Below are positions 10,870 through 53,663 of a stretch of DNA of 64,000 nucleotides, one piece after another. Made by a program: the position numbers and the translations under genes. Origin of the DNA: a virus (taxonomy: Duplodnaviria > Heunggongvirae > Uroviricota > Caudoviricetes); the IMG/VR virus record IMGVR_UViG_3300031994_001875, positions 8,147-72,146 of that record. One strand, 5' to 3'. Position 1 is the stretch's first letter; every line of letters starts with the position of its first letter. The notes under the pieces are model-generated. The model made no database searches. It saw only the letters and a program-made list of their open reading frames with translations, and was not told the DNA's origin.

Positions 10870-11399
10870 GTTTTTCTCCTGAAAAAATAGGAAGCACGAA
10901 CAATGCTCCCTTACATTACACTAAAACGATTAGAACTAACATTAGTTAAGTCTAAGGTCATAATACAATTCCTTCAAATTGTCATAAGTAGTACCGTTCA
11001 TTTCCCAACGATGGGATATTTCATTTTTTGAGATTTCAAATTCTTTCAATTTACCATCACTATCTGGCATAATGAGTTTTACATTTGAAACCTTTGATAA
11101 AAAGTATTGGCGACCGGATAAATCAAAGATAATATCTTCATTGGTTACATCCGCTACTTCAAACACTTTTTCTTGATAAACTACTGAAGTTACTACACCC
11201 TGGATTTGTTCAACAGTAATACATCTATTGGAACCAGTTGCTGTTTCTTCGTAAGTTTGTTTACATTTTAATATCATTTTTACTCCATTATAGCAGTTCA
11301 TTATATGTATAAACTATTTTACTCTGCTACATTTTGTAGTGTATAATATAGAAAACATTTTGAAAAAGGGTATAGTAAATCACGATTTTTCGTGAAATA

Positions 11400-12557
11400 C
11401 TATACTTCTTCATTTTGTGGTTGTATCATCTTATGAACTGCAATTTTTACACCTTTGATAGATTTCTTACCTAACAAATAGTCAATAGCACACATTATGA
11501 TAGGAACTTCGTTCTTTTCCATAGTGTCTACTGCCATTTGAAACTGGTCTTTTCTATTTGGTTTAGCATCCATAATCTGTTGAGCAACCTGTACATAATC
11601 ATCTGTTCTATTTGTGATTTCTGTACGTATCCATTCTGCGTATTCACGAATTTCAGGCAATTCTTCAGGAATAAACAGAACTTCATCATCTATTGGTTTA
11701 TATGAGTTATGTTTATCAACATGAGCATGGAAGAAGTCCTTCTCAATGTCATAACAAACCCATATATTCCATTTAGTCATACCTTCAAACATTTTAGCCA
11801 ACTGGCACCAATCGTCTGATTTAGCCTTGGTCTTAAAACCATTATCAAAGGTGATAACTAGACCTTCTTGGGTCTTTGGCAATTTCTTTGCCCATTCTAC
11901 CGCATCATTGAACTTTTCAAATTCATACAGTTCTACCATACGAACTTTCAAAGATTTTGCGATTTGTTGAAGTTTTTCCAAAGATACTTCTTCTCCAGTT
12001 AAATTCCACAATACACCCAACAAAACCATACCTTCGTAATCATATTTAATTGGATGAATATCTTCCTTATATACAATTTCAAAGCAATATGTTGCGTTTG
12101 GATAAAGTAAATTTACATCTATGTTTTTATCAAACCATTTCTGTGCCCAAACTGCCTGGTCGGAATCAAATGAGCCACCAGTCTTAACTTGCCATTTATG
12201 AGTAAATGGATTTAAGAACACAATACCCAATGAACCATCCACCTTTTCCATACAACGGAATGGACCTTCCAAATTTGGTTTAAATTCTTTTGGAACTTTC
12301 AAATACAATTCGGACTTAAGACCTTCAGCAGTATAGAATTCCTGGTAGTTGAAGAATTTCTTGAAAGGACGGGCTACAATTTCACCAGTCTTTTCATTGA
12401 ATACAATACCACGGGCATTAAGAGTTACATCATCCCAATCACCAGTATAAATCGTATTCATAGAATACTTGAAACCAACCAACCCATTTTGACGATGGGC
12501 AGTTACTCGGCCTAATTTTTCTGCTTCTAATAATAATTGTAATGATGGTTCAAACAT
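11400..12557 (-). CDS. rnlA: RNA ligase 1 (T4 RnlA-like)
   Basis: 385 aa. Nucleotidyltransferase motif I KVDGSLG (T4 Rnl1 KEDGSL). The N-terminal region ...YTGDWDDVTLNARGIVFNEKTGEIVARPFKKFFNYQE parallels T4 Rnl1 ...[40 protein letters not shown]. Confidence 0.85.
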   Translation of the reverse strand: MFEPSLQLLLEAEKLGRVTAHRQNGLVGFKYSMNTIYTGDWDDVTLNARGIVFNEKTGEIVARPFKKFFNYQEFYTAEGLKSELYLKVPKEFKPNLEGPFRCMEKVDGSLGIVFLNPFTHKWQVKTGGSFDSDQAVWAQKWFDKNIDVNLLYPNATYCFEIVYKEDIHPIKYDYEGMVLLGVLWNLTGEEVSLEKLQQIAKSLKVRMVELYEFEKFNDAVEWAKKLPKTQEGLVITFDNGFKTKAKSDDWCQLAKMFEGMTKWNIWVCYDIEKDFFHAHVDKHNSYKPIDDEVLFIPEELPEIREYAEWIRTEITNRTDDYVQVAQQIMDAKPNRKDQFQMAVDTMEKNEVPIIMCAIDYLLGKKSIKGVKIAVHKMIQPQNEEV

Positions 12558-15751: not shown

Positions 15752-15783
15752 AATGTTACATCTTTTTCTTTTTACATAGTATA

Positions 15784-15812
15784 ATATAGTAAAAAATGCA
15801 GTTGTTGTCAAC
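15784..15812 (-). promoter_or_regulatory. sigma70-like promoter (TTGACA-17-TATATT) embedded in a palindrome
   Basis: Minus strand TTGACA (plus 15807-15812), a 17-nt spacer ACAACTGCATTTTTTAC, then TATATT (plus 15784-15789). The -35 lies inside the inverted repeat AATGCAGTTGacaaCAACTGCATT, and phased TGTAAACA/ATTTTACA/TTTTTACA tracts lie just upstream. Confidence 0.6.
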
Positions 15813-17142
15813 TGCATTCTTGTAAAAATATGTAAAATTTTGTTTACAAAACTAGAAATCTTTCTTGATTTCCTGTAATTTTTCGTACATTTGTACTTCT
15901 TTGCCCAATTTTAACAGTTTTGGCATAGATTCTTCAGGCCAAACCAATGTATAATCTTCTTTACCTAATGCTATTTGGAATTTATTAAAAAACATAGTAA
16001 GATATGGACTTGGGGTAAAAATGGCTCTCATTTTGTAATAACCATTTTTCTTCGTGTTTTCCAAATTCACAGACTGTTCTACACATAGCCGGCAGAAGTT
16101 TTTAATTGTCCTTTTATCATTTAGTGGAATGGTATTGAAATCAAAAGTCATGTTCAATGCTCCTTAGTTTTCTCTCCATTAAATAGGATTTAAAATCAAA
16201 ATCTGTTAATGGTTCTGCGTCTGCCCAAGAAATTTGAACAAATGTCATTCCAGCACAATGACTGTCTTTAAATGAAAACCCTTTTTGTTCAAAATGCTCA
16301 AAGATAGTTCTGGTCATTCTATCTTGTGGAATAGAAACATAGGTTTTCCCTTTACTAGCATTTTCTTCTATTCGTTTTTCAATTCTAGCAATCATTTCTT
16401 CATCGGAATTACGATTTACACCATTTGAAATAGTAATCATTTCTCTTGCAGTCATTTGAAATCCCTCTTTATAGATTCAAGATTTTGTTTAATTCGTAAA
16501 TCTTTAATTTGTTTCTGTAATTCGTAGGCTCGTTCTTTAATTTCACTATCAGTGACTAACCAACAACCAATGTTCTTTTCACCATATTCATCAATCAAAC
16601 AAATTCTATAACCAAATGATTTTGAATATGAAGTCATTACTGAACTATAATTTTTCATTGGATTTTCTAAATCCTCAGGTAATTGATATAAACATACATC
16701 TCTTGACCCTGGAATATACAATGTCGCTGGAACTAATCCAATAGATTCACATAGTTCGGCAAATTCTGTTGGTGTCATTTGAAGTCCTTTTCTATGTTCT
16801 TCAGTTGAGTTTTAATTCTACGTTCTTTATATTCTTTCAATCGTTTGGATAACATTTTAATGGCATCTTCTTTCCTTGTAGCCCAATAACCTTCTTCAAA
16901 TTGACCTGCATCAATAGAATATAAAATCATAGAGCCAGCAGGCCAGTTGTATTTCTTATCGTTATACAACTTTCTATCATCTTCTGTTCTGATATTGCTC
17001 TTTGTTAATCGTTTATAAGTACGATAACCACATATAGATTCAAACCAATCGTCCTTAAGAACATATCCACCATCACTGGTGATTTTGTCACTATACTGGG
17101 CTAGATTAAACATGTCAATGATTTCTTTGTAAGTTTTTTCGT

Positions 17143-23764: not shown

Positions 23765-23793
23765 AATATAGAAAAATCCACTGACTTTGTCAA
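23765..23793 (-). promoter_or_regulatory. sigma70-like promoter in a palindrome
   Basis: Minus TTGACA-AAGTCAGTGGATTTTTC-TATATT, with the stem AAATCCAcTGAC/GTCAGTGGATTT. Confidence 0.55.
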
Positions 23794-25189
23794 TGGATTT
23801 TTGGGGAGAGTCTGTAAATTTTTGTTTACATTACTTCTTCTTTTTGGCACGATAAGAAGAATTTTGAATGAGCTTCATAGCAGTTTCGTTGCCATGTGGG
23901 TGCTGCTTATTCAATGTAGTAATGAATGACTTGAAGGTTTCATTATCAAATGCGAAATCCCAGTCTAGACGATTTTCGGACTGCATTTCCATAATCTTTT
24001 GAATGGCTTTCTTCATAGTTACATTACGGGCAAATGCTTTTACATAATTATCCTTTGCGGAACACTCAATTTTCGCATCAGTCACAAAGAATTTCTTCTT
24101 TTCACCACAGATTCGTGAAGCAAAATCTTCACCACCCTTATAGGATTCATCATCTGTCAAATAGAAGATACTACACAAACCAGTTCTGCGTTTCTTCTTG
24201 GTTACTTCTTTTACTGGGGTATGGTCAAAGCGTACCAGGAACCATTCGTTACCGCGCTTACCATCTTTATAAACAACATTTGCTTTTACTATCATTTTGT
24301 TTTCCTTTGTTATTAGTTAAATTCAAAAAGACTTTTTTCAAAGAAACTGTGATAAAACCATCGTAATTCTTATTTCGTTTCTTTTTAATAAGTGTCATTG
24401 GATAATTGAAATAAACTCATTAGAGAAATGTTAATTTTGCAATTTTAGAAGAACAAACTTCTTCATAATTTTGGATTTTTGTACAAATTATCACGAAACA
24501 TTCTTCGGCAAGTAAAATATCGTGGTTACTCACTCAATTTTACCTCTAGAAGCCCCTTTTCGCTTAAAGCCGTAAAAAACATCTTTGCAAGATTTGTACG
24601 AAAAAGCCACCAACAAATTATTCCAACAACTCAGTCAATTATTCACCGTAGATACGGGTATAAATTGTGTCATTCAGGTCAAATGTGAACTTTGCCTGAG
24701 AATTAATCTTTGATAGTTCATCTTCAAGACGAACCTTCTTCTGCTTTAATGTTTCCAATTCCTTGGTAGCATCAAAGTCAGTAATCTTTTCCAATGTGGC
24801 TACTTCCCAGTTACCGGTAACAGGGTTACGGGATTTGGAAGTACGATTGGCTTTTAATTTGTTTTCAATCTGTTGTACAACAGTGATTTGAGCATTTACT
24901 TTGTTCAAACCATTAAGAATTTTCTTACCTTCCAAATTTTGACTATCAATCAAATCGGAAAGTTCACGATTTGCTTCCATCAAATCAGTTAAAAGTTTGT
25001 ATGAACCTTCAACATCGTTGGTTTCAAATGCTTCAAGCAATTCTGCCTTGCGTTCTGGTTCAACTACATACTGAGAATAACACATTTGAGAGTTAATCTT
25101 GTTAAGAAGTTCCTTAATGCGTTTACGGAGTGTAAATGCTGTGGTTAAATTTAAATCTAGTTTCATAATATCCTCTTTTGTTTTGTTAA

Positions 25190-25217
25190 AATATAGTTTT
25201 TACAATTCTATTGTCAA
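25190..25217 (-). promoter_or_regulatory. sigma70-like promoter
   Basis: Minus TTGACA-16-TATATT, followed by the SD AAGAGGA and the ATG of the gene at 24639..25166. Confidence 0.5.
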
Positions 25218-28444: not shown

Positions 28445-28473
28445 AATATAGTAATTTACTGACGATTTGTCAA
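28445..28473 (-). promoter_or_regulatory. sigma70-like promoter
   Basis: Minus TTGACA-AATCGTCAGTAAATTAC-TATATT. Confidence 0.55.
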
Positions 28474-33112: not shown

Positions 33113-33142
33113 AATTATAGATAATTATTTTTGGTTTGTCAA
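33113..33142 (-). promoter_or_regulatory. sigma70-like promoter (TTGACA-18-TATAAT)
   Basis: Minus TTGACA AACCAAAAATAATTATTC TATAAT TGAACT ATG. Confidence 0.55.
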
Positions 33143-33394
33143 TGGATTTTTTTGCTATTTTCTTGTAAAATTTATTTTACATTAGAAAACACAATTTTTA
33201 GATTTTCAATGAATTCGTCAGTTCTTGATATTGGTTCGTCATAACCCGCGATTTCACCAGTTTCGCCATCATCATAAATTGTGAACATCAATACATTATT
33301 GTAATAATAATTTCTGTCACCGAGACCAGTTTCTTCACAAGATAAATTGTATTTCCTTTCCAAATCTTTAATAAAATTCTTAAATTTATCTTGC

Positions 33395-35082: not shown

Positions 35083-35111
35083 AATATAGCAAAAAAATCC
35101 ATTGTTGTCAA
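35083..35111 (-). promoter_or_regulatory. sigma70-like promoter in a perfect palindrome
   Basis: Minus TTGACA-ACAATGGATTTTTTTGC-TATATT. The palindrome AAATCCATTGacaaCAATGGATTT spans 35095-35118, and the SD ACGAGGT is 6 nt before the ATG of the gene at 34733..35050. Confidence 0.65.
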
Positions 35112-36010
35112 TGGATTTCTTATAAAACTGTGTAAAATAATGTTTACAAATGGCTATTTTTGTTTTTCTTTGTAAATTTTATTATACAAACCATCATAAA
35201 GGAAGATATGAACCGGTAAAATGGCTATGTAATTGGGGATTAGTCTTAACCAAAAACTATCAATGGAACAACCAAACTGATACCAACCAATGAACCATAA
35301 GAAAATGCCGATTTCTATTAGAAATAGTTTTAGAAATTTCATAGTTTACTCCTTTATTTTTAGTATCTTAACCACTTTCTGTGATTCTTCAATTTCTTTC
35401 TTTGTTTGTTCTTCTTGTCTTTCTTTTTCCAACTGTTCAGCAGTAGCCTTTCTCTTTTCTTTCAAATAGATTTTGTACTGAAGAACAGCATCATCTTGGT
35501 CAGTTCCAGTATAGATTGTTACCCAATCATATTGATTTCGGGTAGTTCCATCATCGTAATATGAAGAATGAACTACTGACCATTGCTGGACAACCCAATC
35601 ACCATTTCCGAGCTGTGCTACACGAAATGGATTTTCTGCTAATTTGTTTTCACTATGAATAGTAGTTGCTAAAACAACTGCTATACCGACTAAAAACAAT
35701 GGTAATAAAAAGTAAAACATTTATTCTCCTTATTTAAAATCTTCGGATGCTTTTTGGAATTTGATAATTTCTTTATACTGCTTATATGTTTTGATTAAAT
35801 TCTTCAGGTATTTACGAGCATCATCCAACTGGTCAAACTCAACTGGTTCATACGAATGGTAAATACTTGCATCCAAATGAGTATTTCTTTTGTTGGCAGG
35901 TTTGAAATTTAATTCTAATGGAAAGATTAGAATTTTATTATCACAGTATTTAACTGAAATTTTCAAATCTTTATCCAGTTTATAAAATGCGTTTTCTGTT
36001 TGTTTACTCA

Positions 36011-36154
36011 TTACCAGTTACCTCCTTCATTTTCTAGTCTGCGGAAGAAATCATCATCATCATCATCACTTTTGGTTTGTTCAACTTCCAATCCAAATTC
36101 TTGAACAAACTGTTCCCATTCTTCCTGGGTGATAATTGGTCTATAATCATCCAT
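36011..36154 (-). CDS. small acidic protein, TQEEW-motif family (47 aa)
   Basis: Unlisted ORF MDDYRPIITQEEWEQFVQEFGLEVEQ...; paralogs lie at 36801..36983 and 38363..38551. Confidence 0.45.
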   Translation of the reverse strand: MDDYRPIITQEEWEQFVQEFGLEVEQTKSDDDDDDFFRRLENEGGNW

Positions 36155-36204
36155 AAAATCTCCTTTAGTTTTGCCAAAATATAATCAAAAATGGGCAGTT
36201 AGTA

Positions 36205-36387
36205 AACTACCCATTTAATTATTTTGTTAATTGCTAAACTTCGTAATTATTGTTAGTATCGCAAAAAATACAGTAGCAATAACACCAACCACACCCAAAC
36301 AGCTAACAGAATCAAAAGTACCATCTTTCAGTAATGGATATAGTAGCAATAAACTGACTATAATTAATCCAATACAAAATGCTACCA
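36205..36387 (-). CDS. small membrane protein (~60 aa)
   Basis: Unlisted minus-strand ORF MVAFCIGLIIVSLLLLYPLL...GVVGVIATVFFAILTII, coupled to the upstream stop (TAAATG). Confidence 0.4.
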
Positions 36388-36800: not shown

Positions 36801-36983
36801 TTACCCTGATACAGTTATGCTATTGCTAGCGGTCAATGAATAATCAGATGTATTGTTTACAGTGTAATAACTCATAGGTTCTTCTTTTTCCAAACCCATT
36901 TCTTGAACAAATTCATCCCATTCTTCCTGAGTACACAATGGTTCTTTTTCTTCTTGGTTATCTTGAACTAAACCACCTAGCAA
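36801..36983 (-). CDS. small acidic protein, TQEEW-motif family
   Basis: ...CTQEEWDEFVQEMGLEKEE...; the reading frame is open upstream to ~37075. Confidence 0.4.
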   Translation of the reverse strand: MLGGLVQDNQEEKEPLCTQEEWDEFVQEMGLEKEEPMSYYTVNNTSDYSLTASNSITVSG

Positions 36984-38382: not shown

Positions 38383-38551
38383 CTTCCAGACCCATTTCTT
38401 CGCAGAAATTAGTCCATTCTTCTTCAGTACATACTGTTTTCATTTCTTCAGTATTTTTATCGTCACCCAATGTACCCAAAAAACTGCCGCCAAGGCCACT
38501 ATTAATGGCTAGTTGTTTTAGTAATTCATTTATAACATCATTAGAATTCAT
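38363..38551 (-). CDS. small acidic protein, TQEEW-motif family
   Basis: ...VCTEEEWTNFCEEMGLEDGG.... Confidence 0.4.
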   Translation of the reverse strand: MNSNDVINELLKQLAINSGLGGSFLGTLGDDKNTEEMKTVCTEEEWTNFCEEMGLEDGGAHE

Positions 38552-40938: not shown

Positions 40939-40967
40939 AATATAGTAAAATTATTCGTCCTTGTCAA
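40939..40967 (-). promoter_or_regulatory. sigma70-like promoter
   Basis: Minus TTGACA-AGGACGAATAATTTTAC-TATATT. Confidence 0.5.
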
Positions 40968-44279: not shown

Positions 44280-44308
44280 AATATACAAAAAACCACTGAT
44301 TTTGTCAA
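44280..44308 (-). promoter_or_regulatory. sigma70-like promoter in a palindrome
   Basis: Minus TTGACA-AAATCAGTGGTTTTTTG-TATATT, then the SD AAGGAGA before the gene at 43934-region. The stem is AAACCAtTGAca/TCAGTGGTTT. Confidence 0.55.
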
Positions 44309-46500
44309 TGGTTTACAGTTTAATTTTTGTAAAATTTTATTTACACTTACTTAAAATCTTGTTCAATATCGGTCAGTTTCATTTTTTCTTTAACATTTCT
44401 TAACCAATAAGCATGTTTTTCTTCAAACGAAATATCTTTGTTAGTCATAAATTTTGCTTCTTCCAATGTATCGTAAGAAATTGGTATCATAAACTGATAA
44501 CCAATTTCTCGCCAGTAATAGTGCCACCAAATAAACCACCATTGAGGGCACCAGCGCTCACCAACATCTAAATTTGGTGTGGTAACTCTTTTCTTGGCAA
44601 TTCTGTGTGTATGTTTGTAAATAAATTCTAACAATTTATTCATCATAATGAACTTCTTCACCATTAACTGTTATCTTGTTCAAATCCAATACTTTAGAAG
44701 CATTCGTTGGTTTATGGTTCATTGGGTGAATTACACAAAATGCTCCAACACCATAAACAATTTCTACTTCGGAAAACTTACCATTGTATTCTAATTGGAA
44801 ATGATAGTTTTCCCAGTCATCTTTATCACTATAAACAAATGGTCTAAAATTCTTTACCCAAATGTTTTGATAAAAGAATTCCATACAGTGCCAGATATCT
44901 TCTTTATCTTCACCTTTGTAATTGTATTGTAAATCTTCTTCTTCAAATGTTTTCTGTTGTTCAACAATTTCTTTTAGTTTGTTAAACATGTCAGGATGTT
45001 CTACTTGTGTAATAATCATAAATCCCAATTATTCATAATTTCAACTTGATATTTCTTGGCTTCGTTAATAATACCATTAGCAGTGTTCTGGTCAATGATT
45101 TGGGCAATATCAGTTTCATTTATATCATACTGTGAATCTTCAAAACATTGGATTTTTACTTCACTAAATCCATTAGATGTCAAATGCCCAACCAAAGAAG
45201 TTTCAGGGTCATACTGAATATGGATTACTTTGGCATGGCATCTAAAAAATCCTTGACCCTTAAAATCAATATCCAGTACATGAATAATGGATATATCGTC
45301 AAGATTATCTCTGTTAAATTTGACTGACATAGCCATCAGTTTTCGGCCATATTTAATTAGATACTTACCCTTATATTTGGCTTCCAATTCTGTTTTGTTA
45401 GCCATAGCCTTTTCGTCTTTTAGTTGCTGCCTGCGAGCATCAGCCCAAAGACTGATTTCTTTCAATTCGGTTTCGTCAGTAAGATTGTTAATCTTTTCTT
45501 TTAATTCTTCATTCATATTTTGTTTCTTCAATAGGTTCGTAACATGTAAAAATCTTTGGGTTCTTTGTACATTCGTAGCAATATGGCATTACATAGCCCT
45601 TAGAAGCATAAGTTGCTTTCTTACCACAAATAGAACATACATGCCAACTTTCAGTTTCTAGTCTAAATAACAATTCATCAATCTGTCGGCGGCAATCACC
45701 ATTACCAACACCACTGTAATACAAACGAGCGGTTCCCCATTTCTCTTTTGCGTCAGTGATATAGAAATTGTGAAGTTCGCCATATCTTTTAAGGATTTTG
45801 TTCAATCGTTTACAATAACCAATGATTAACTTTCGCCAACCATCAGGATAACAATCCAAATCTGTAAACTTGTAATCGTAATCTGGAATTATTGTTCCAT
45901 CATATTTTCTTGGTCTCAGGTATGGAAATCTCCATACAAGATAACGATTTTTTAAATTGAACATTATTTGAAATCCCTCCTAACTTGATGTTCCAATTCT
46001 ATTTCTTTTGCTTTTTTAGCTTCTTCGTACAAATTATTTAACAACACTAAAATTTCGTCATCAGTTTTAAATTTTTTTCTATTTAATGCGTTAAATGTTG
46101 TAGTTGGTTTTATCTTACTCCATTCAAAGCAAAATGTTCTTGGTTCGCCATTTATATAACGAATTACATCAGGATAATAAATGGTTTCTTCCCAATAATC
46201 CACTCTAAATACACCCCATTCTTCTAAACTTACATTAAAACAATGTTCGTTACAATCCATTTTAAATGGGGACTGAATATGCTCACCAAAGAACTTAATA
46301 GATTCTTCAATTTTCTTTTGGTTCATATTCTTTTGCCATTTCTTTAAAGTCAGGAGTTGTAACGAGTTGTGATAACTGAGCAACCAAATTATTCAAATTG
46401 TTTAAAACCATTTGTGTTGCTAGTTTTTCTTCAGGATTATCTGTGTTATTGAATAACACTTCCAATCTCTTAATTTCATATCCAAGTTCTTCTAAACAAA

Positions 46501-47124: not shown

Positions 47125-49217
47125 ATTCTCTCTTTTTCTTAATGCTATTATTGCCCTTATAAACTGTGGTAATAATTTTGGTTCCTTCTTTAATCGTAAC
47201 AACCAATGGTAAATGATTCTTTACATGCTTGGTTTGTGATGGATTTAAACTTTCCCAATGAGTTTTAGGAATATCAATTTCATCTAATACGATTTGATTA
47301 CCAACCAAAACACCATATTTCATACAAAGATTAATATCCTTATACAAAATTCGTCTTTCTTTCATTCGGGTTCTACAATGGTCAGTCATTACATAATGAT
47401 GATAATTTCTATCAAACTCCGGTTTCTTTACAAACAAATTCTTAAAAAAGTCAAGTATTTTCATAATTTTCCTTCCATCGGAGATATTCCTTTTCACATT
47501 CTTTTGAGAGTTTCATTACTTCATTATAATCATCATGGAGTTTACCTGACCCATTCATATTAGAACTGAGTAATTTCAAATAACTATAACAAGAATTTAA
47601 TCGGCTTTTGTAATATCGTTTTTGGAATGTAAATTCATCTTCATCGTAGTTTCGTTTTAGTTCATAATTCTTAATACGATTTACAAAATTAATTGTTTCC
47701 ACCCTCATCAAATAGTTCCTTTGCATTCATAAAGTTCATAAACACCATTTTTGCTAGAACTTCGTTATCATAACCCAAATCAAGTAGTTGTTCTAAATTC
47801 GCTTTATAATAACAAATTTCGTCATAGCCTTCTTTCCATACAGAAACTTCTTTCGCATTAACATCGTATGCTAAATACGCATCGTTGTCCCTATATTGAT
47901 TCGCATATACCTTTATTGCTTCCCATAAATCGTTCATTGGTTTCTCTCACAAATTTTAATTGATAAACATCAGGAAATTTTGGATTTTGCCCCAATCTTT
48001 CCAATCTATAATTTTTGTTTTTGGCATAACGAACAATCACATTCATCATATCCACACATAAGTTAGGGTTTTGTGAAAGTGTTTTGTCTTTATATGTAAC
48101 ATCAATTATAGCATACGATTCAGGGATAATTTCTCGCTCAAACAATGCTCTATCTTCATCACTATCTTGGTCTTTTCCAATAGCAAGAACATCAGTATTC
48201 ATTTGAACATTCAATCTATCATTACTAACAAATTTAATTTCAAGCACCAGCATTAAGAACCTCAATTACTACATAACCATATTTTCCACACATTTCATTA
48301 GCGAATATGGTTGCGATTTCTTTAGATTCCCAAGTGCGTACATTCTTACCAAATTCACCCGCGAAACCACCACCCACTAATGGATATGCGGGTCCATTTG
48401 GAAATTGAAAAACAACTGTGTATTTCATAATCTTTTTAATACCTCAATCGCACCAAATAAACAGACTGAATAAACAATGAAGTTTAACCAGTCCAAATTC
48501 AGTTCAAATAAAAAATTGAATATAGTTAAACTCAAGGCACAAGTGAGATAATCACTTATAAATCTTGATACTTTATCTATATTCATATTAAACCACCATC
48601 AATCTTTCAATGTATGCATCCAGTTCTGCTTTGGTCATGTTTGGCATTTGCTTCAAAAGGTCTTTGATATGTGAACGAAGGAAATCCTTCATTTCTTCAG
48701 CAACCTTTTCTTCCTTGCCGAGCATCATTTCCAAATCATCTTGATTCATCATAGTATTTCTCCTTATTTATGTTTGTTTACCACCATAGGTCAAAAAAGT
48801 TTTCTTGGAATAATTTAATGGCTCTTTTTACTTTTGCCATATTTCCATTTTCTTCGTTAGCATCCGCAGTTTCCCATTCAAATTTATGTGAATGGAGTTC
48901 AAATCCTTCAATCATTTCATCAAGAATTTTATTCCATTCTTCTATTGAATTATAACGAGCTGGATAACCATCGTTTAGTTCTTTGAATACTTTCAATCTT
49001 GGAATCATGAATTTACAAAAAGTAATATCCAAATTCCACAATTCAGTATCATCAAACCCACGGGTCATTCGTTGTTCTTTATACTTCTTCTGTCTTTCTT
49101 TATCTGAGACTTCGTTAGCACAAGAAAAACAAATGTTTTTATTTTGTATTACATCTTCCATACATTATAATATAGTAATTTTTTAGTTTGGAAACAACAT
49201 ACTTAGATACAAAATGT

Positions 49218-50654: not shown

Positions 50655-53018
50655 GAATAGCCCTGATAATGTTTGCTATTCCCATTGACCCGAAGATTAT
50701 GAACAAAAGAGTCCAACCTGGGTTGTTTGTAATAAAGTTCATTACAAGTTCCATATTAGTTTTCTCCATATTTTTGTTTTAGTTTTTCGTATAGATTTCG
50801 TTCATCAATTTCTTTCTGTATTTTGGCTTGTTCTTCGGCTTCTTTCTGTTTGCGTTCCATTTCTTCTTTGTCTTTACGCATTTGTTCTTCCCTGCGTTTT
50901 TCTTCGTCAATTAGGAACTGCTCAAAATCTTTCTTTGCCTTGTCTTTATTACCTTCAAAATAATCGTCAAGAATGGTATTGGGTACATTGTATGTGATGT
51001 AATCTTCATCACCATAAATCCAATAACTCAAACGAAGCTCACTCGTTTCACCTGGAGCATTGTAAACAAGTCTATCAAAATAGAACTGTCTAGTTGTTTT
51101 AACACCCTTAAACAGAAATGTCACCATATTATACAGTTCATCTTCCATTTCATCTACACATTTTAGTGATTCACGATATTTTAAAAGTTTTTCATTCATT
51201 CGTAATACCTGTTGTAAAGTTTTTCGTTTAGTACAATGTCTAGTTCTTTTTGAATGTTTGGTGAGTTCCCGTGTAATGGTGAACCATAACCAACTGTTCC
51301 ACCCATCGGGCTCCAAAACACAATATCGTATTTTGAAGTCAAACTCATAACATCAGCTTTTGGCATTTCATATTCAGCACTATCTACCAAACACAAATCA
51401 AGAAAATGTTTGTTCTCGCCAACACCTGAAAGACCTTCAACAAATACTGTCTTAAAAATTGGATTAGCAAACCAAAACTTCAATACTGGAACATGCTGGT
51501 CAATAGCAAATCCATTTGCCTTACGCCAGTTTTGGATTAACGCACGAAGTTCCGCACCAATCATTTCAGGAATTAAAGATTCAATGCTCTTATGGAGAAC
51601 ATCTTTATTCTTATACAAAAGAGTTGTTTTTGTAAAAGGTTTACCCTTAATTTCTTTTTCAACAGTTAATTCAATTTTCTGCGTCATTTTCTTCCTTCTT
51701 TTCGGGTTCTTTTTGAACTACTCTAATCTGTAATGGATAATCTTCTTTAATATATTTCACAGTGGTTGTAATAAACAGATACAGTGAAATCATAAAAGCT
51801 GCACCAAACAAAATAGCATAATCAGGGTTGCCATCTTGATAAAAGCCAATAGAGTGAACAATAGTCCAGGCACAAACTAATGACCAAAGTACAATTCCTA
51901 ATCTCATAGTTTACCTGTATTGGAAAGTGTAGTTGCCTACATCATAAGAGGCATTATGTCTATTCACAGTTCTTTCTTTGAAACCCATTGAGAAAAGTTT
52001 TTCTTTTGTGAGCTGTGAGAACAACATAATGTCACGGTTAGTTGGAGTTTCAATGGTGATTAGTTCGTTCTTTGTATCATAAGTAATCTTACTGCCATCA
52101 TTGAACAAACATTCATTTAAATTCCAGGACTTGATATTATCTAGAATGCCTTCTAGCATCTTAAATCGCCATAACATAAATTGGTCTGTTGTCATAATTC
52201 CTTCTATTTATATGGGAAAATAACCCACATTTCTGTGGGTCATTTGTTTAACATTACTGCGGGTCTGGAACATACAGGATAGTCGGATTATCCTTATGGA
52301 TGTCCATTTGCTTCAGGTCAAGATTCTTTTCCTTCGTGAACTTTTCCCAACGAACACCAAACATTTGTTTGTTAAATGGACTAACCACAAAATGCTTACC
52401 GCTCTTGGTAGGAACAACGAAAAATTCGTTCTTAACCCTGTATCTTGCTTCTTCTTTGCTAATGCCTAAATCCATATAAGCCTGGATTTTCTTGTCATAC
52501 GGCTGGCAATCAAGAATCATTTCCATAACATCGTTTTCGTATGGGAGATATTCCTTGTCCATATCCACAATCCAGGTCTTGTCTTTACCAGCCTGGCAAA
52601 CAGTGCCACATGCGGAGGTAACAAGATGGAACGGTGACGAGAAGGATTCACCACTAGCACATTGTTCAGCAATATGTTTCATCATTTCCAGTGCGATATT
52701 CTTGTAATTTCTCTTATTCAGTCGGATATACGCACGAACATTGAACATATCGCAGAGCATCTTAATATCGTCTTTGACCTTTTCAAGATGGTCAATGTCT
52801 TTAATGAGATAATCCTTGATAGAACGAGAGTGCATGTTCCCGTGATACTTGGGGTCTTTTACACCATTCTTCTGTGGGTCATCCGCCTGGCGACGGAGCA
52901 ACTGAACATAGTAGCAATCGCCTTCTTTCCAATCCAGCTGCTGCTTTGCCATATATTCTTTAATTAGTTCAAAATTATCAACCATTGTTTACCTCTTTTG
53001 TTGTTTGTTTCTAAAGAA

Positions 53019-53047
53019 AATATAGATATATTTCTTCAGTTTGTCAA
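53019..53047 (-). promoter_or_regulatory. sigma70-like promoter
   Basis: Minus TTGACA-AACTGAAGAAATATATC-TATATT, then the SD AAAGAGGT before the ATG of the gene at 52254..52985. Confidence 0.55.
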
Positions 53048-53634
53048 TGGAAAAATTGTAAAATTGTGTAAATTTTTATTAACATTCTTCAAAAATGGTG
53101 TGTTCCTTGTATTCAACACCATTCTTTTTAGCACAACGAATTTCGGCCTGCTTTCTGTATTCCGAAAGATTTTTGATAGCATCCATATACTTACGAATGC
53201 CGTACTTCTTCAGTAAATAGCCATGCTGACCCAGTGCTCGGTCATAGTAGGTCGTACCACCACCCCAACGAGGACAAGAAGTACGTTGCCATCCGTCGCG
53301 GGGCTGGATAAATCCATCGTGTAGGAACATAGCCCAGGTCTTTGAGAGATAACCATCCGCATAACCCAAATTAAATGCGTTGTTCATCATAGCTTCACGC
53401 TTGGATTTTACAATTCGTTCTTCCTTCGGAAGACGTTCCAATGTGTAGCCATTATTCTCATATTCTTCAGCGGCTTGGTCAGTTAAAGAACCAATCCCAA
53501 CGAGATAACGAGCGAGCTGGAACCAACGACGTTCCTCCACCTTATACACACATTTCTTGAGTTCACTATTCCAGCAGCGAGTTACATAAAATGGATTCAT
53601 ATTGTTACCTCTTGTTTTGTTGTTTACATATAGT

Positions 53635-53663
53635 AATATAGAAAAAAACATCTATTTCGTCAA
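53635..53663 (-). promoter_or_regulatory. sigma70-like promoter in a palindrome
   Basis: Minus TTGACG-AAATAGATGTTTTTTTC-TATATT. The stem is AAACATCTATT/AATAGATGTTT, and the SD AAGAGGT precedes MNPFYV (the gene at 53079..53600). Confidence 0.55.

Follow-up and report, generated by a model that had tools for sequence, protein, structure and literature searches.

The early, hyperplastic region of an uncultured and distant T4-like phage contains repeated intergenic cassettes that are probably regulatory elements of the PeSL (promoter-early stem-loop) type. This region forms the content of the 64,000-nt stretch of DNA that was analyzed, termed the window, in which every gene or ORF is carried by the minus strand. 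The anatomy of the cassettes, their enrichment, the covariation and strand asymmetry of their stems, and the presence of breakpoints within them in relatives were all observed directly. Assignment to the T4-like lineage was based on a gp43-like family B DNA polymerase (31-32% identity to cyanomyovirus gp43), an RNA ligase gene also encoded in the window and the single-strand layout of the ORFs. As the polymerase is ~32% identical to that of any cultured T4-like phage, this lineage is very distant from the phages in which PeSLs have been described. A 6-kb query from the window had no megablast match among 50,697 phage records, indicating that there is no close cultured relative, and an Rfam search of the whole window at the gathering threshold gave no matches, indicating that the cassette hairpins are not a known RNA family. 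No tRNA was found in a search of the window. The labels of related contigs refer to ruminants (yak omasum, rumen and reindeer). Assignment of a host from the labels of metagenome-assembled genomes (MAGs) was rejected due to the inconsistency of these labels (Clostridia, Bacillota, Lachnospiraceae, "Rickettsiales" and Treponema).

The promoter motif TTGACA-N17-TATATT, allowing up to one mismatch, was detected 13 times in the window, always on the minus strand, relative to an expectation of 1.64 ± 1.26 from shuffled sequences (0/100 shuffles reached 13). Ten core copies, named here by the position of the first T of a TTGAC[AG] −35 element, are listed in Table 1 together with two variant cassettes and a related arrangement, the last of which recurs in a relative (L066). 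In a generic promoter scan of the 15- to 55-kb region, every site with 11 or 12 matching positions out of 12 (11 sites) was on the minus strand. Core cassettes accounted for nine of them, and the remaining two (17118 and 49810) were located within ORFs, while the tenth core cassette (53663, with TTGACG) scored 10/12. The original prediction was of a cassette at ten positions with every module present in each copy. The repetition and common orientation of the element were confirmed by the counts above, but the modules were not uniformly present, as a hairpin with a T-run was found in only 5 of the 10 copies and upstream tracts in only 5 to 7. Similarly, TATATT had been placed exactly 17 nt after TTGACA, and this was found in most copies but not at 25217 (N16), 33142 (TATAAT) or 53663 (TTGACG). 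Overall, the spacer was 17 nt and the −10 element was TATATT in 9/10 core copies each, and TTGACA-N17-TATATT, a sigma70-like promoter as judged by sequence match, was present at 8 sites. A conserved C at −13 precedes the −10 element, giving (C)TATATT. The promoter is probably of the host sigma70/sigmaA type. A GAGGT/GGAG Shine-Dalgarno sequence was present 5 to 9 nt upstream of the ATG in most copies and was weak or mutated in two (33142 and 15811).

Table 1. Cassettes of the window and a related arrangement, with coordinates in window positions
Cassette	Type	Span	Strand	Upstream element	−35	−10	Hairpin	Energy (kcal/mol)	z	Covariance model	Other features
15811	full	15783..15848	minus	palindrome TGTAAACAAAATTTTACA 15848-15831; second TTTTACA	TTGACA 15811-15806	TATATT 15788-15783	15821-15792; stem AAGAATGCAGTTG/CAACTGCATTTTT	−15.3	−7.1	26.7 bits	T-run; upstream stop TAG 15854-15852; downstream ATG 15751
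23793	full	23765..23830	minus	palindrome 23830-23813	23793-23788	23770-23765	23802-23772; 14 bp, one U·G	−15.9	−6.3	67.7 bits	terminator-like
35111	full	35083..35148	minus	palindrome 35148-35131	35111-35106	35088-35083	35121-35092	−13.1	−6.3	found	repeat family D1; one further TGTAAACA in 5′UTR
44308	full	44280..44345	minus	palindrome TGTAAATAAAATTTTACA 44345-44328	44308-44303	44285-44280	44314-44290; one U·G	−11.5	−3.1	64.1 bits	terminator-like
53663	full	53635..53700	minus	palindrome 53700-53683, right after stop TAA	TTGACG 53663-53658	53640-53635	53673-53645	−12.2	−5.0	found	
55821	variant	55793..55833	minus	no palindrome	TGAACA (−35-like) 55821-55816, in hairpin loop	TATATT 55798-55793	55833-55803	−16.4	−4.9	29.9 bits	T-run
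36206	variant	36178..36216	minus		TTTACT (−35-like) 36206-36201, in hairpin loop	TATATT 36183-36178	36216-36189; GC-richer	−16.6	−5.6		T-run; terminator-like
53047	promoter only	53019..53075	minus	ATTTACA / ATTTTACA repeats	TTGACA 53047-53042	53024-53019	none		+0.35		
40967	promoter only	40939..40967	minus		first T 40967		none		+0.67		overlaps 3′ end of ORF 41382-40951; stop codon in spacer
33142	promoter only	33114..33181	minus	palindrome variant 33181-33164	first T 33142	TATAAT		0			AAATCCATTGACAA kept, right arm missing
28473	promoter only	28445..28473	minus	no palindrome	first T 28473		none		−1.0		stop TAG abuts −35
25217	promoter only	25190..25217	minus	no palindrome	first T 25217		none		+0.69		16-nt spacer
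	related arrangement	60767..60824	minus	palindrome extended to hairpin GATGTAAAtttttatTTACATC 60824-60803	TTGCCA 60795-60790	TATATT 60772-60767					T-run after hairpin; N17 spacer

Like PeSLs, the cassettes are repeated, intergenic and co-oriented with the genes of a T4-type genome. They span 15.8 to 53.7 kb and are surrounded by ORFs without homologues, and none was found inside the conserved polymerase/RNA ligase/ThyX/methylase block; concentration in the hyperplastic region, outside the conserved core block, is another property of PeSLs. For one protein family, DF-tail, the C-terminal helix was the only part modelled confidently in structure prediction. Several other interpretations of the motifs were rejected. 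The word TTGACA occurs 55 times on the sense strand and once on the antisense strand, against just 2.5 expected under a third-order Markov model, indicating that lower-order composition, rather than avoidance of antisense promoters, accounts for this asymmetry. The TTTACA words are not −35 boxes, as no −10-like hexamer was present 16 to 18 nt downstream in the sequences of the copies. The T4 late promoter TATAAATA is present once in the window, indicating that the cassettes are not late promoters.

Significant hairpins were detected in only five of the ten core copies (15811, 23793, 35111, 44308 and 53663), while the folding of the others (53047, 40967, 33142, 28473 and 25217) was no better than that of shuffled sequences. 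Four degenerate copies had also been proposed; two of these, the variant cassettes 55821 and 36206, have a significant hairpin, whereas those at 11330-11400 and 49150-49215 lack a −35 element and show just a −10 element, CTATATT. A stem-loop, as expected of PeSLs, is therefore present in 7/12 window cassettes. Energies at these 7 sites ranged from about −10 to −16.6 kcal/mol, with z scores of −3 to −7, and 0/200 shuffles folded as well. A covariance-model scan, suggested as a check in the original prediction, recovered six of the seven hairpin copies at E<0.05, with 36206 being absent from the matches listed. The −35 element had been placed in the left arm of the hairpin. Only TTG(A)(C) lies in this arm, the remainder of the hexamer being in the loop, and in relatives the −35 element is located in either arm or in the loop.

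The hairpins have a stem of 10 to 14 bp, a loop of 3 to 5 nt (up to 8 in relatives) and a 5- to 7-nt U-run on the 3′ side, and are located 40 to 50 nt past the stop codon, which is the geometry of an intrinsic terminator. A generic terminator scanner flagged 3/7 hairpin cassettes (23793, 44308 and 36206). The T-run had a median length of 5 nt in cassettes with a hairpin versus 3 nt in those without (Mann-Whitney p = 1e-5), an association that is partly circular because pairing between the A-tract and the U-tract supplies part of the calculated stability; such pairing would also compete with a free U-tract. The stems are AT-rich, with 3 to 5 G-C pairs each, and the stand-alone GC-rich terminators of the window (31346-31311, 57544, 10941 and 8272) are stronger. 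As the whole putative terminator is nested in the −35 element and spacer of the next promoter, the 17-bp spacer limits how long it can be. The absence of a hairpin from 5/10 core copies indicates that the element can do without termination.

In order to examine the stems more widely, about 80 non-redundant cassettes from relatives were compared. Stem sequences were wholly different while pairing was retained, with more than 40 different stem sequences occupying the same position. A plain MAFFT alignment could not register the stems, as loop length and register vary (pair sums of 8, 9 and 12); hence, a covariance model, built from seven copies sharing one register, was utilized instead of RNAalifold. 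In the resulting alignment of 30 matches, which is fitted to the structure, 90.5% of cells were paired compared to 77.8% in shuffles (0/500), and only 31 to 54% were paired in slid controls. Double-sided changes were present in 7/13 stem pairs of this alignment. The compensatory stem changes that had been noted between copies were, therefore, borne out and extended by the relatives. Strand asymmetry was assessed in two independent sets, both of which were picked without reference to the hairpin. The sense fold was the more stable in 19/21 cassettes of the first set (Wilcoxon p = 1.2e-4) and 23/27 of the second (Wilcoxon p = 7e-4), and G·U pairs numbered 24 on the sense strand versus 6 on the antisense strand and 35 versus 8, respectively. 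Strand-specific C-to-T mutation on the non-template strand could in principle inflate a G·U bias. Selection of the hairpin for pairing rather than for sequence is supported by these patterns, which point to a structure working at the RNA level, on the sense strand. Retention of pairing, the occurrence of the T-run with the hairpin and the bias of G·U pairs to the transcribed strand argue for an RNA hairpin rather than an operator and support the proposal that the hairpin and T-run are a terminator lying over the −35 element.

The upstream region contained a second conserved module. The motif TGTAAACA-N3-TTTTACA, with up to two mismatches, had 10 matches in the window versus 1.12 expected. The five core hairpin copies all had the full TGTAAACA..TTTTACA module; 33142 and 53047 had variants of it, 40967 had a single TTTACA, and 25217 and 28473 had no upstream tracts. 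The upstream stop codon was located 0 to 16 nt before, or within, the TGTAAACA motif, matching the upstream stop of PeSLs. These tracts had been interpreted as phased, UP-element-like A/T tracts. The phasing was upheld, but as a property of a sequence-conserved palindrome, TGTAAA-N6-TTTACA, located 10, 20 or 31 bp upstream of the −35 element, while the UP-like feature is an A-tract at −43 to −40, which matches the A-tract of T4-type early promoters. Such promoters generally have an A-rich stretch at −40 to −44 (PMC1524935). Spacing between the palindrome and the −35 element was quantised (10-11, 20-22 or 31-32 bp) in 47/49 cassettes. The palindrome consists of two 5- to 6-bp half-sites 6 bp apart with a centre near −63.5, which shifts by whole helical turns; hence, a conserved sequence is held on a fixed helical face relative to the −35 element, as in activator or UP-type sites. 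In position and helical phasing, it resembles class I activator sites (e.g., CRP at −61.5 or −71.5) and distal UP elements, but TGTAAA-N6-TTTACA fits no regulator consensus that we could name and membership of this class is not claimed. While tentative, one possibility is that a dedicated dimeric factor binds the palindrome and turns all of the early cassettes on or off in concert. Such a factor could be virion-carried, phage-made early or host-supplied and could occupy the same helical face as the −35 element (centre about −63.5, ± one turn). The palindrome offers a concrete candidate regulator site.

Rearrangements among relatives were examined in other contigs of the clade, the cassettes of the window itself being compared by distant synteny only. 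The block between a glycosyltransferase gene, a 56-aa anchor ORF and the RNA ligase gene varies in gene content among four relatives, and cassettes are located at the edges of this variable block. In four pairs of closely related contigs (86-96% nucleotide identity over aligned segments), breakpoints fell in cassettes. One inserted ORF separated the Shine-Dalgarno sequence from the ATG in one pair (L045/L067), an insertion was flanked by a duplicated 5′UTR in another (L015/L068), an indel consisted of one cassette plus one ORF in the third (L054/L056) and identity stopped at the −10 element in the fourth (L034/L066). The endpoints of indels and replacements were, as for PeSLs, within the elements, at the 5′UTR/Shine-Dalgarno, the −10 element or the upstream palindrome and not in the stems. 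Cassettes without a hairpin (L054B and L056) shared in the same rearrangements.

PeSLs have been described in RB49/phi1, T4/PST and KVP40/nt-1 (Arbiol 2010, PMC2839356; Comeau 2014, PMC4122927). Their layout consists of an upstream stop in an AT-rich region, a sigma70-like −35/N17/−10, a stem-loop, a Shine-Dalgarno sequence and an ATG, with the stem-loop lying between or overlapping the boxes in five positional subclasses and containing G-T pairs; promoter and terminator activities were shown with lacZ fusions in RB49/phi1, and crossovers were mapped within the elements (PMC2839356; PMC4122927). The window cassettes share with PeSLs their repetition between genes of a hyperplastic early region, the upstream stop in an AT-rich stretch, the sigma70-like core (TTGACA-N17-TATAAT in RB49), a 3′ end carrying the Shine-Dalgarno sequence and ATG, a stem-loop with G-T pairs between the boxes or over the −35 element, breakpoints of indels and replacements within the elements (here in relatives) and the existence of "half" or degraded copies (5/12 window cassettes are without a stem-loop). 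They differ in having a (C)TATATT −10 element, AT-rich stems with a variable core as opposed to G(n)/C(n) in RB49 and A3-4G3/C3T3-4 in nt-1, and the TGTAAA-N6-TTTACA palindrome within the AT-rich region, which is absent from the published description of PeSLs. Moreover, the source of these cassettes is gut metagenomes and they are known from sequence alone. Early promoters of T4 ("uber" UP/−35/TGn/−10; PMC2988021, PMC1524935) similarly have near-consensus host elements, extra conserved upstream positions and an A-tract at about −40 to −44 and precede small early ORFs, many of them novel. In contrast to T4, the cassettes have no TGn extended −10 but a C at −13, a −35 of TTGACA (as in RB49) rather than GTTTAC, and TTTACA words further upstream, as a palindrome. 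The hairpins resemble intrinsic (Rho-independent) terminators, including bidirectional ones with an A-tract and a U-tract, in stem, loop and U-run sizes and in position past the stop codon but differ from typical examples in the low GC content of the stem and in being nested within the −35/spacer of the next promoter.

Promoter activity, termination and early timing are inferred from the RB49/phi1 experiments together with standard promoter and terminator rules. On the minus strand, a cassette would be read in the order of upstream stop, palindrome, A-tract, −35/17-bp spacer/−10, a short leader with a strong Shine-Dalgarno sequence and ATG. About half of the copies would form a 10- to 14-bp RNA hairpin over the −35 element and spacer, followed by a 5- to 7-nt T-run at the 3′ end of the spacer. 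Transcripts of the cassette itself would begin downstream of the hairpin, and hence the hairpin would be present solely in transcripts entering from upstream, in which its role would be that of an intrinsic terminator or an attenuator. In this way, the small early gene blocks could each be an insulated unit that is re-promoted at once, with the flanking A-tract doubling as a proximal UP-like element and the T-run as the terminator U-tract. The repetition of such self-contained cassettes could allow promoter-plus-ORF modules to be swapped, added or removed by recombination between copies, with neighbouring genes spared. More speculatively, the location of the terminator release site within the next promoter could let a just-released polymerase re-initiate on the spot.

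Other explanations for the cassettes appear less probable. An RNA hairpin selected on the sense strand would fit equally well with a role as a 3′-end protector or processing barrier that stabilises the upstream mRNA once it has been cut by an endonuclease or trimmed by a 3′-exonuclease, while transcription reads through. T4-type early regions are associated with long read-through transcripts and heavy mRNA processing, and the modest, AT-rich stems would also suit this role, which is nevertheless considered unlikely: the 5- to 7-nt T-run directly 3′ of the stem, seen only where there is a hairpin, is a termination signature and superfluous for protection, and the stem-loop of a PeSL cut downstream lacZ as strongly as the rrnB T1 terminator (PMC2839356). 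A DNA-level role, in which the inverted repeat forms a cruciform or single-stranded hairpin for recombination or replication restart and is mainly recombinational, is very unlikely. While cassettes hold the breakpoints between relatives and the authors of the PeSL study speculated on a stem-recognising recombination protein (PMC2839356), the breakpoints lie outside the stems, hairpin-less cassettes rearrange likewise and strand-asymmetric G·U pairing favours RNA.

The suggestion that the palindrome over the −35 element serves as an operator bound by a dimeric repressor or activator was not sustained and is highly improbable. Overlap with the −35 element is a classical location for a repressor and AAATCCATTGACAA is common to several window copies, but the arms are wholly different between copies and relatives, with pairing kept and no conserved half-site, the distance of the symmetry centre from the −35 element varies by more than 10 nt, the palindrome is missing from half of the promoters and a G·U bias to one strand is meaningless in duplex DNA. 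Least credible of all is a small non-autonomous mobile element (MITE or REP-like) with incidental promoter-like sequence. Family D1 is indeed a dispersed intergenic family of about 70 to 100 nt with 60-77% identity. The cassettes, however, all point the same way and keep a constant register with the ATG that follows, lack terminal inverted repeats and target-site duplications, and are conserved only in the −35, −10, palindrome and Shine-Dalgarno sequences, the rest being free to vary; Pfam scans of 30 window ORFs detected no transposase.

Earlier PeSLs came from three groups of T4-like phages infecting Proteobacteria (PMC2839356; PMC4122927). The PeSL architecture is now extended to a T4-like lineage far from cultured phages, known from metagenomes only and with ruminant-gut relatives; its presence in so distant a lineage suggests that the insulated, self-promoted module and recombination joint is old and general in T4-type genomes. 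In the original PeSL papers, the RNA role of stem-loops was demonstrated only on single cloned examples (PMC2839356; PMC4122927), and the strand-biased G·U pairing provides sequence-only evidence for selection of stem-loops as RNA. The cassette motif is also easily searchable and, in contigs from uncultured phages, flags shuffling joints as well as transcription units. Searches with this motif exposed 39 contigs of phage DNA mis-binned into bacterial MAGs.

The original prediction of a repeated intergenic promoter cassette was partly confirmed, its core being borne out. Matches to TTGACA-N17-TATATT (≤1 mismatch) numbered 13 in the window, ten of them the listed intergenic copies, and all lay on the gene strand, compared with 1.64 ± 1.26 in shuffles. 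When 15-55 kb was scanned for generic sigma70 promoters, all 11 sites matching 11 or 12 of 12 positions lay on the gene strand, nine of these best sites being core cassettes, and the total of weak promoter-like matches was not above chance. The upstream word TGTAAACA-N3-TTTTACA occurred 10 times in the window against 1.1 expected, and a CTATATT -10 was present alone at several other intergenic sites.

Cassettes are named here by the position of the first T of the -35 on the minus strand. Strong hairpins over the -35 and spacer (-10 to -16 kcal/mol, equalled by 0 of 200 shuffles) were detected at 15811, 23793, 35111, 44308 and 53663. Two copies previously regarded as degenerate (-35-like hexamers at 55821 and 36206) also folded strongly, with the hexamer in the loop, and folding of 53047, 40967, 33142, 28473 and 25217 was no better than that of shuffles. 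The description of every module as present in each copy was thus too strong: the five canonical hairpin copies carry the full upstream module, which was partial or absent elsewhere. A covariance model derived from seven copies sharing the same register recovered six of the seven hairpin cassettes at E<0.05 in a window scan, missing 36206, and detected nothing comparable on the plus strand.

Related loci (L-numbers) were obtained by pattern and protein scans of IMG/VR (126 loci) and by a scan of bacterial genome bins (39 more). With the relatives' cassettes defined by palindrome and promoter only, a hairpin of ≤ -8 kcal/mol was found in 21 of 38 non-redundant cassettes of a first set and in 27/40 of an independent second set. 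Stem sequences were unrelated (GCAG/CTGC, CACCCCA/TGGGGTG, CGTCA/TGACG, ACTGG/CCAGT, GGCTGGTTG/CAATCAGCC) and the -35 lay in the left arm, loop or right arm. In every case the stem's 3′ end and the T-run abutted the -10. The proposal that compensatory stem changes reflect selection for pairing was upheld in an alignment of 30 covariance-model hits, which, being fitted to the structure, leans towards it: 90.5% of cells were paired versus 77.8% in column shuffles (0/500), two-sided changes occurred at 7 of 13 stem pairs, and sliding the partner by 1-3 columns lowered pairing to 31-54%.

Strand asymmetry in RNA folding was the most informative test. The sense strand was the more stable in 19/21 hairpins of the first set (p = 1.2e-4; 24 G·U pairs sense versus 6 antisense) and in 23/27 of the second (p = 7e-4; 35 versus 8). 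As a protein-binding palindrome or cruciform would show no strand bias, these results favoured the hairpin as RNA rather than DNA; a strand-specific mutation bias may contribute in part to the G·U asymmetry. The strand-biased G·U pairs, together with the unrelated stem sequences, argued against the suggestion that the inverted repeat at the -35 is an operator. T-runs were longer with a hairpin (median 5 versus 3 nt, p = 1e-5), an association that is partly circular since A/U ends raise the calculated stability. The cassette's own transcript would start downstream of the -10, so that the hairpin would be present only in RNA reading in from the upstream gene, making a terminator or attenuator of upstream transcripts the most economical reading; the main alternative is a 3′-end protective structure. 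The terminator-plus-promoter interpretation was essentially right, re-describing a known class, except that not all copies carry the hairpin.

This class is the promoter-early stem-loop (PeSL) cassettes of T4-type phages. In PeSLs, the upstream stop codon lies within an AT-rich region, the promoter is sigma70-like (TTGACA-N17-TATAAT in RB49), the stem-loop, with G-T pairs marked, can be situated between the promoter boxes or over the -35, a Shine-Dalgarno and then the ATG form the 3′ end, promoter and terminator activities were demonstrated by lacZ fusions, and crossovers map to the loop, to the AT-rich region or to the interval from the -10 to the ATG (PMC2839356). "Half" PeSLs and lineage-specific consensus sequences have been described (PMC4122927). 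On every sequence-level criterion, the cassettes match this published anatomy and behaviour. They differ in belonging to a phage lineage very distant from cultured T4-like phages, whose host may be Bacillota, and in having stems that are AT-rich and vary in the core, a (C)TATATT -10 that lacks TGn and an added conserved, phased palindrome.

The "phased TTTTACA tracts" noted originally resolved to this palindrome, TGTAAA-N6-TTTACA (consensus, 29 copies). Behind it there is often another TTTTACA, one helical turn further on, together with an A-tract occupying -43 to -40. The UP-like reading was retained for the A-tract, the position of which agrees with the A-rich UP-like -40 to -44 region that PMC1524935 reports as common to the early promoters of T4-type phages in general. 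Palindrome-to--35 distances were quantised (10-11 bp, n = 7; 20-22 bp, n = 38; 31-32 bp, n = 2), with no intermediate spacings among the cassettes measured, and the extra or missing turn was not merely a TTTTACA repeat unit, which indicates that the palindrome is constrained to one helix face. Its centre is at about -63.5 at the common spacing. Its partner may be alpha-CTD or a factor of either host or phage origin; a site for a dedicated regulator seems rather unlikely. In a few cassettes (window 60824-60767; L066) the palindrome was extended to a hairpin and T-run ahead of the promoter. Distant relatives (polymerase ~50% identical) kept the hairpin around the -35, their stems being richer in GC and their boxes reading TTTACA or TTGACG, and the palindrome was absent from those examined, which makes it a clade-specific addition.

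By synteny, one block differed in gene content across the window and four relatives, with cassettes at its edges. A cassette lay directly before the 56-aa anchor ORF in L069 and L073, and L070 had a promoter without the upstream palindrome; the window carries an extra ORF (15751-15425) between cassette 15811 and the anchor, and the homologues of this extra ORF in L054 and L056 were also the first gene after a cassette. Homology breakpoints fell inside cassettes between contigs with 86-96% nucleotide identity over aligned segments. A single ORF was inserted precisely between the cassette Shine-Dalgarno and ATG in L045/L067, a 320-nt ORF insertion in L015/L068 was flanked by a duplicated 5′UTR (AATTAACAAAGAGAGGTA), and L054 and L056 differed by one cassette-plus-ORF module. 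L056 kept a palindrome, hairpin and T-run without a -10, immediately followed by the next palindrome and promoter. Identity between L034 and L066 extended up to the -10, with unrelated sequence beyond, and L066 had a second copy of the -10/5′UTR 1.4 kb downstream.

The window (G+C ~33%, essentially all ORFs on the minus strand) derives from an ENA metagenome assembly, in which its contig is 71 kb long, and had no megablast match among cultured phages. Its gene products include a family B DNA polymerase (31-32% identity to gp43 of T4-like cyanophages), a T4-type RNA ligase, ThyX, three N6/N4 DNA methylases, a chaperonin, Hsp20 and an M18 aminopeptidase; the majority of its ~140 ORFs are small and lack a family match. 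Relatives were large IMG/VR contigs (48-80% polymerase identity) and short contigs in ruminant-gut "MAGs". This identifies the window as the early, hyperplastic part of the genome of a T4-like phage that is uncultured and has relatives largely from ruminant guts. The cassette pattern selected 39 short contigs (L128-L166) binned in ruminant-gut MAGs (GTDB genome bins) labelled Clostridia, Bacillota, Lachnospiraceae, "Rickettsiales", Gastranaerophilales or Treponema, with 8-13 cassette contigs each in several bins (e.g., RGIG9710, SRR8387716_bin.52). Phage DNA of the window's clade, misclassified as bacterial, appears to make up most or part of these bins.

Coordinates of genes and other features in the window
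Feature	Coordinates	Strand	Remark
Glycosyltransferase gene	17934-17143		bounds variable block
56-aa anchor ORF	15410-15240		bounds variable block
RNA ligase gene	12557-11400		bounds variable block
N6_N4 DNA methylase genes (three paralogues)	4974-4276, 4279-3539, 1632-895	minus	PF01555, E = 1e-31 to 1e-38
DF-tail ORFs, examples	17146-16775, 16778-16452, 16455-16141, 16157-15852	minus	
DF-tail ORFs, further examples	19767-17935, 14344-12567, 55822-54648	minus	
Protein-quality-control cluster	60216-55862	minus	unusual for a phage
M18 aminopeptidase	60216-58882	minus	
Hsp20/alpha-crystallin	58033-57545	minus	
Cpn60/GroEL-type chaperonin	57478-55862	minus	full-length
NAD synthase	63784-63020		
Stand-alone GC-rich intrinsic terminators	8272-8242, 57544-57479, 52253-52196, 31346-31311, 10941-10870	minus	
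66-nt coding repeat	36065-36151, 36867-36953, 38384-38449		plus-strand coordinates; 73-76% identity
ORFs with 66-nt repeat	36154-36011, 36983-36801, 38551-38363		

Minus-strand ORFs ending in DF, DFx or DFxx numbered 36 of 143 (25%), against a DF dipeptide background of 0.5% per position, and 53/247 ORFs of relatives had this tail. About 32 of the 36 (93-165 aa) share a C-terminal motif of ~16-35 aa, K-x-[YL]-x5-L-x-x-I-x-x-D-F-[KE]*; a profile of the tail found 34 window ORFs, a circular result since it was built from the same ORFs. The codons vary synonymously (GAT/GAC, TTT/TTC), so the tail is a protein-level feature. N-terminal parts were mostly without detectable relation, no Pfam or PHROG match was obtained, and AlphaFold was confident only of the tail, a 30-residue helix, in a DF-tail protein. 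It could be a shared targeting or partner-binding tail, and a DF(K/E)-ending helix on about a quarter of all ORFs is the chief of several side observations that may be more unusual than the cassettes, upstream of which these ORFs are the usual genes (GATTT[CT]-stop-TGTAAACA). The tail may be compared with the ends of the methylases and the polymerase, the genes of which adjoin one another. The methylase C-termini ([DEG]FFE: DFFE/EFFE/GFFE) and that of the polymerase (LDDFFV) look like sliding-clamp-binding motifs, and on that reading the methylases would be tethered to the replisome.

Several short sites were strongly depleted on both strands of the whole window relative to a third-order Markov expectation: CAATTG (0 observed, 28 expected), CATATG (0, 21.5), AATATT (7, 59), ATTAAT (23, 61), TCTTAG/CTAAGA (0, 24), TTCTGA/TCAGAA (2, 25) and CTCTTC/GAAGAG (3, 24). 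This looks like restriction-site avoidance; the window also encodes the three methylase paralogues. The T4 late-promoter word TATAAATA had one copy in 64 kb on both strands, compared with 8.8 ± 2.6 in shuffles, every one of which held at least one; this suggests avoidance of late-type promoters in the early region. The sole copy (52205-52212, minus) sits 9 nt upstream of the ATG that starts ORF 52195-51911, just past a GC-rich terminator. At another terminator (8272-8250; TCCCGCGACCAGCGGGA plus T6), TATATT follows 2 nt later without a -35, a hairpin, T-run and -10 geometry equal to that of the window cassettes. The 66-nt repeat encodes a peptide common to three small ORFs, which are a small paralogous family within the hyperplastic region.
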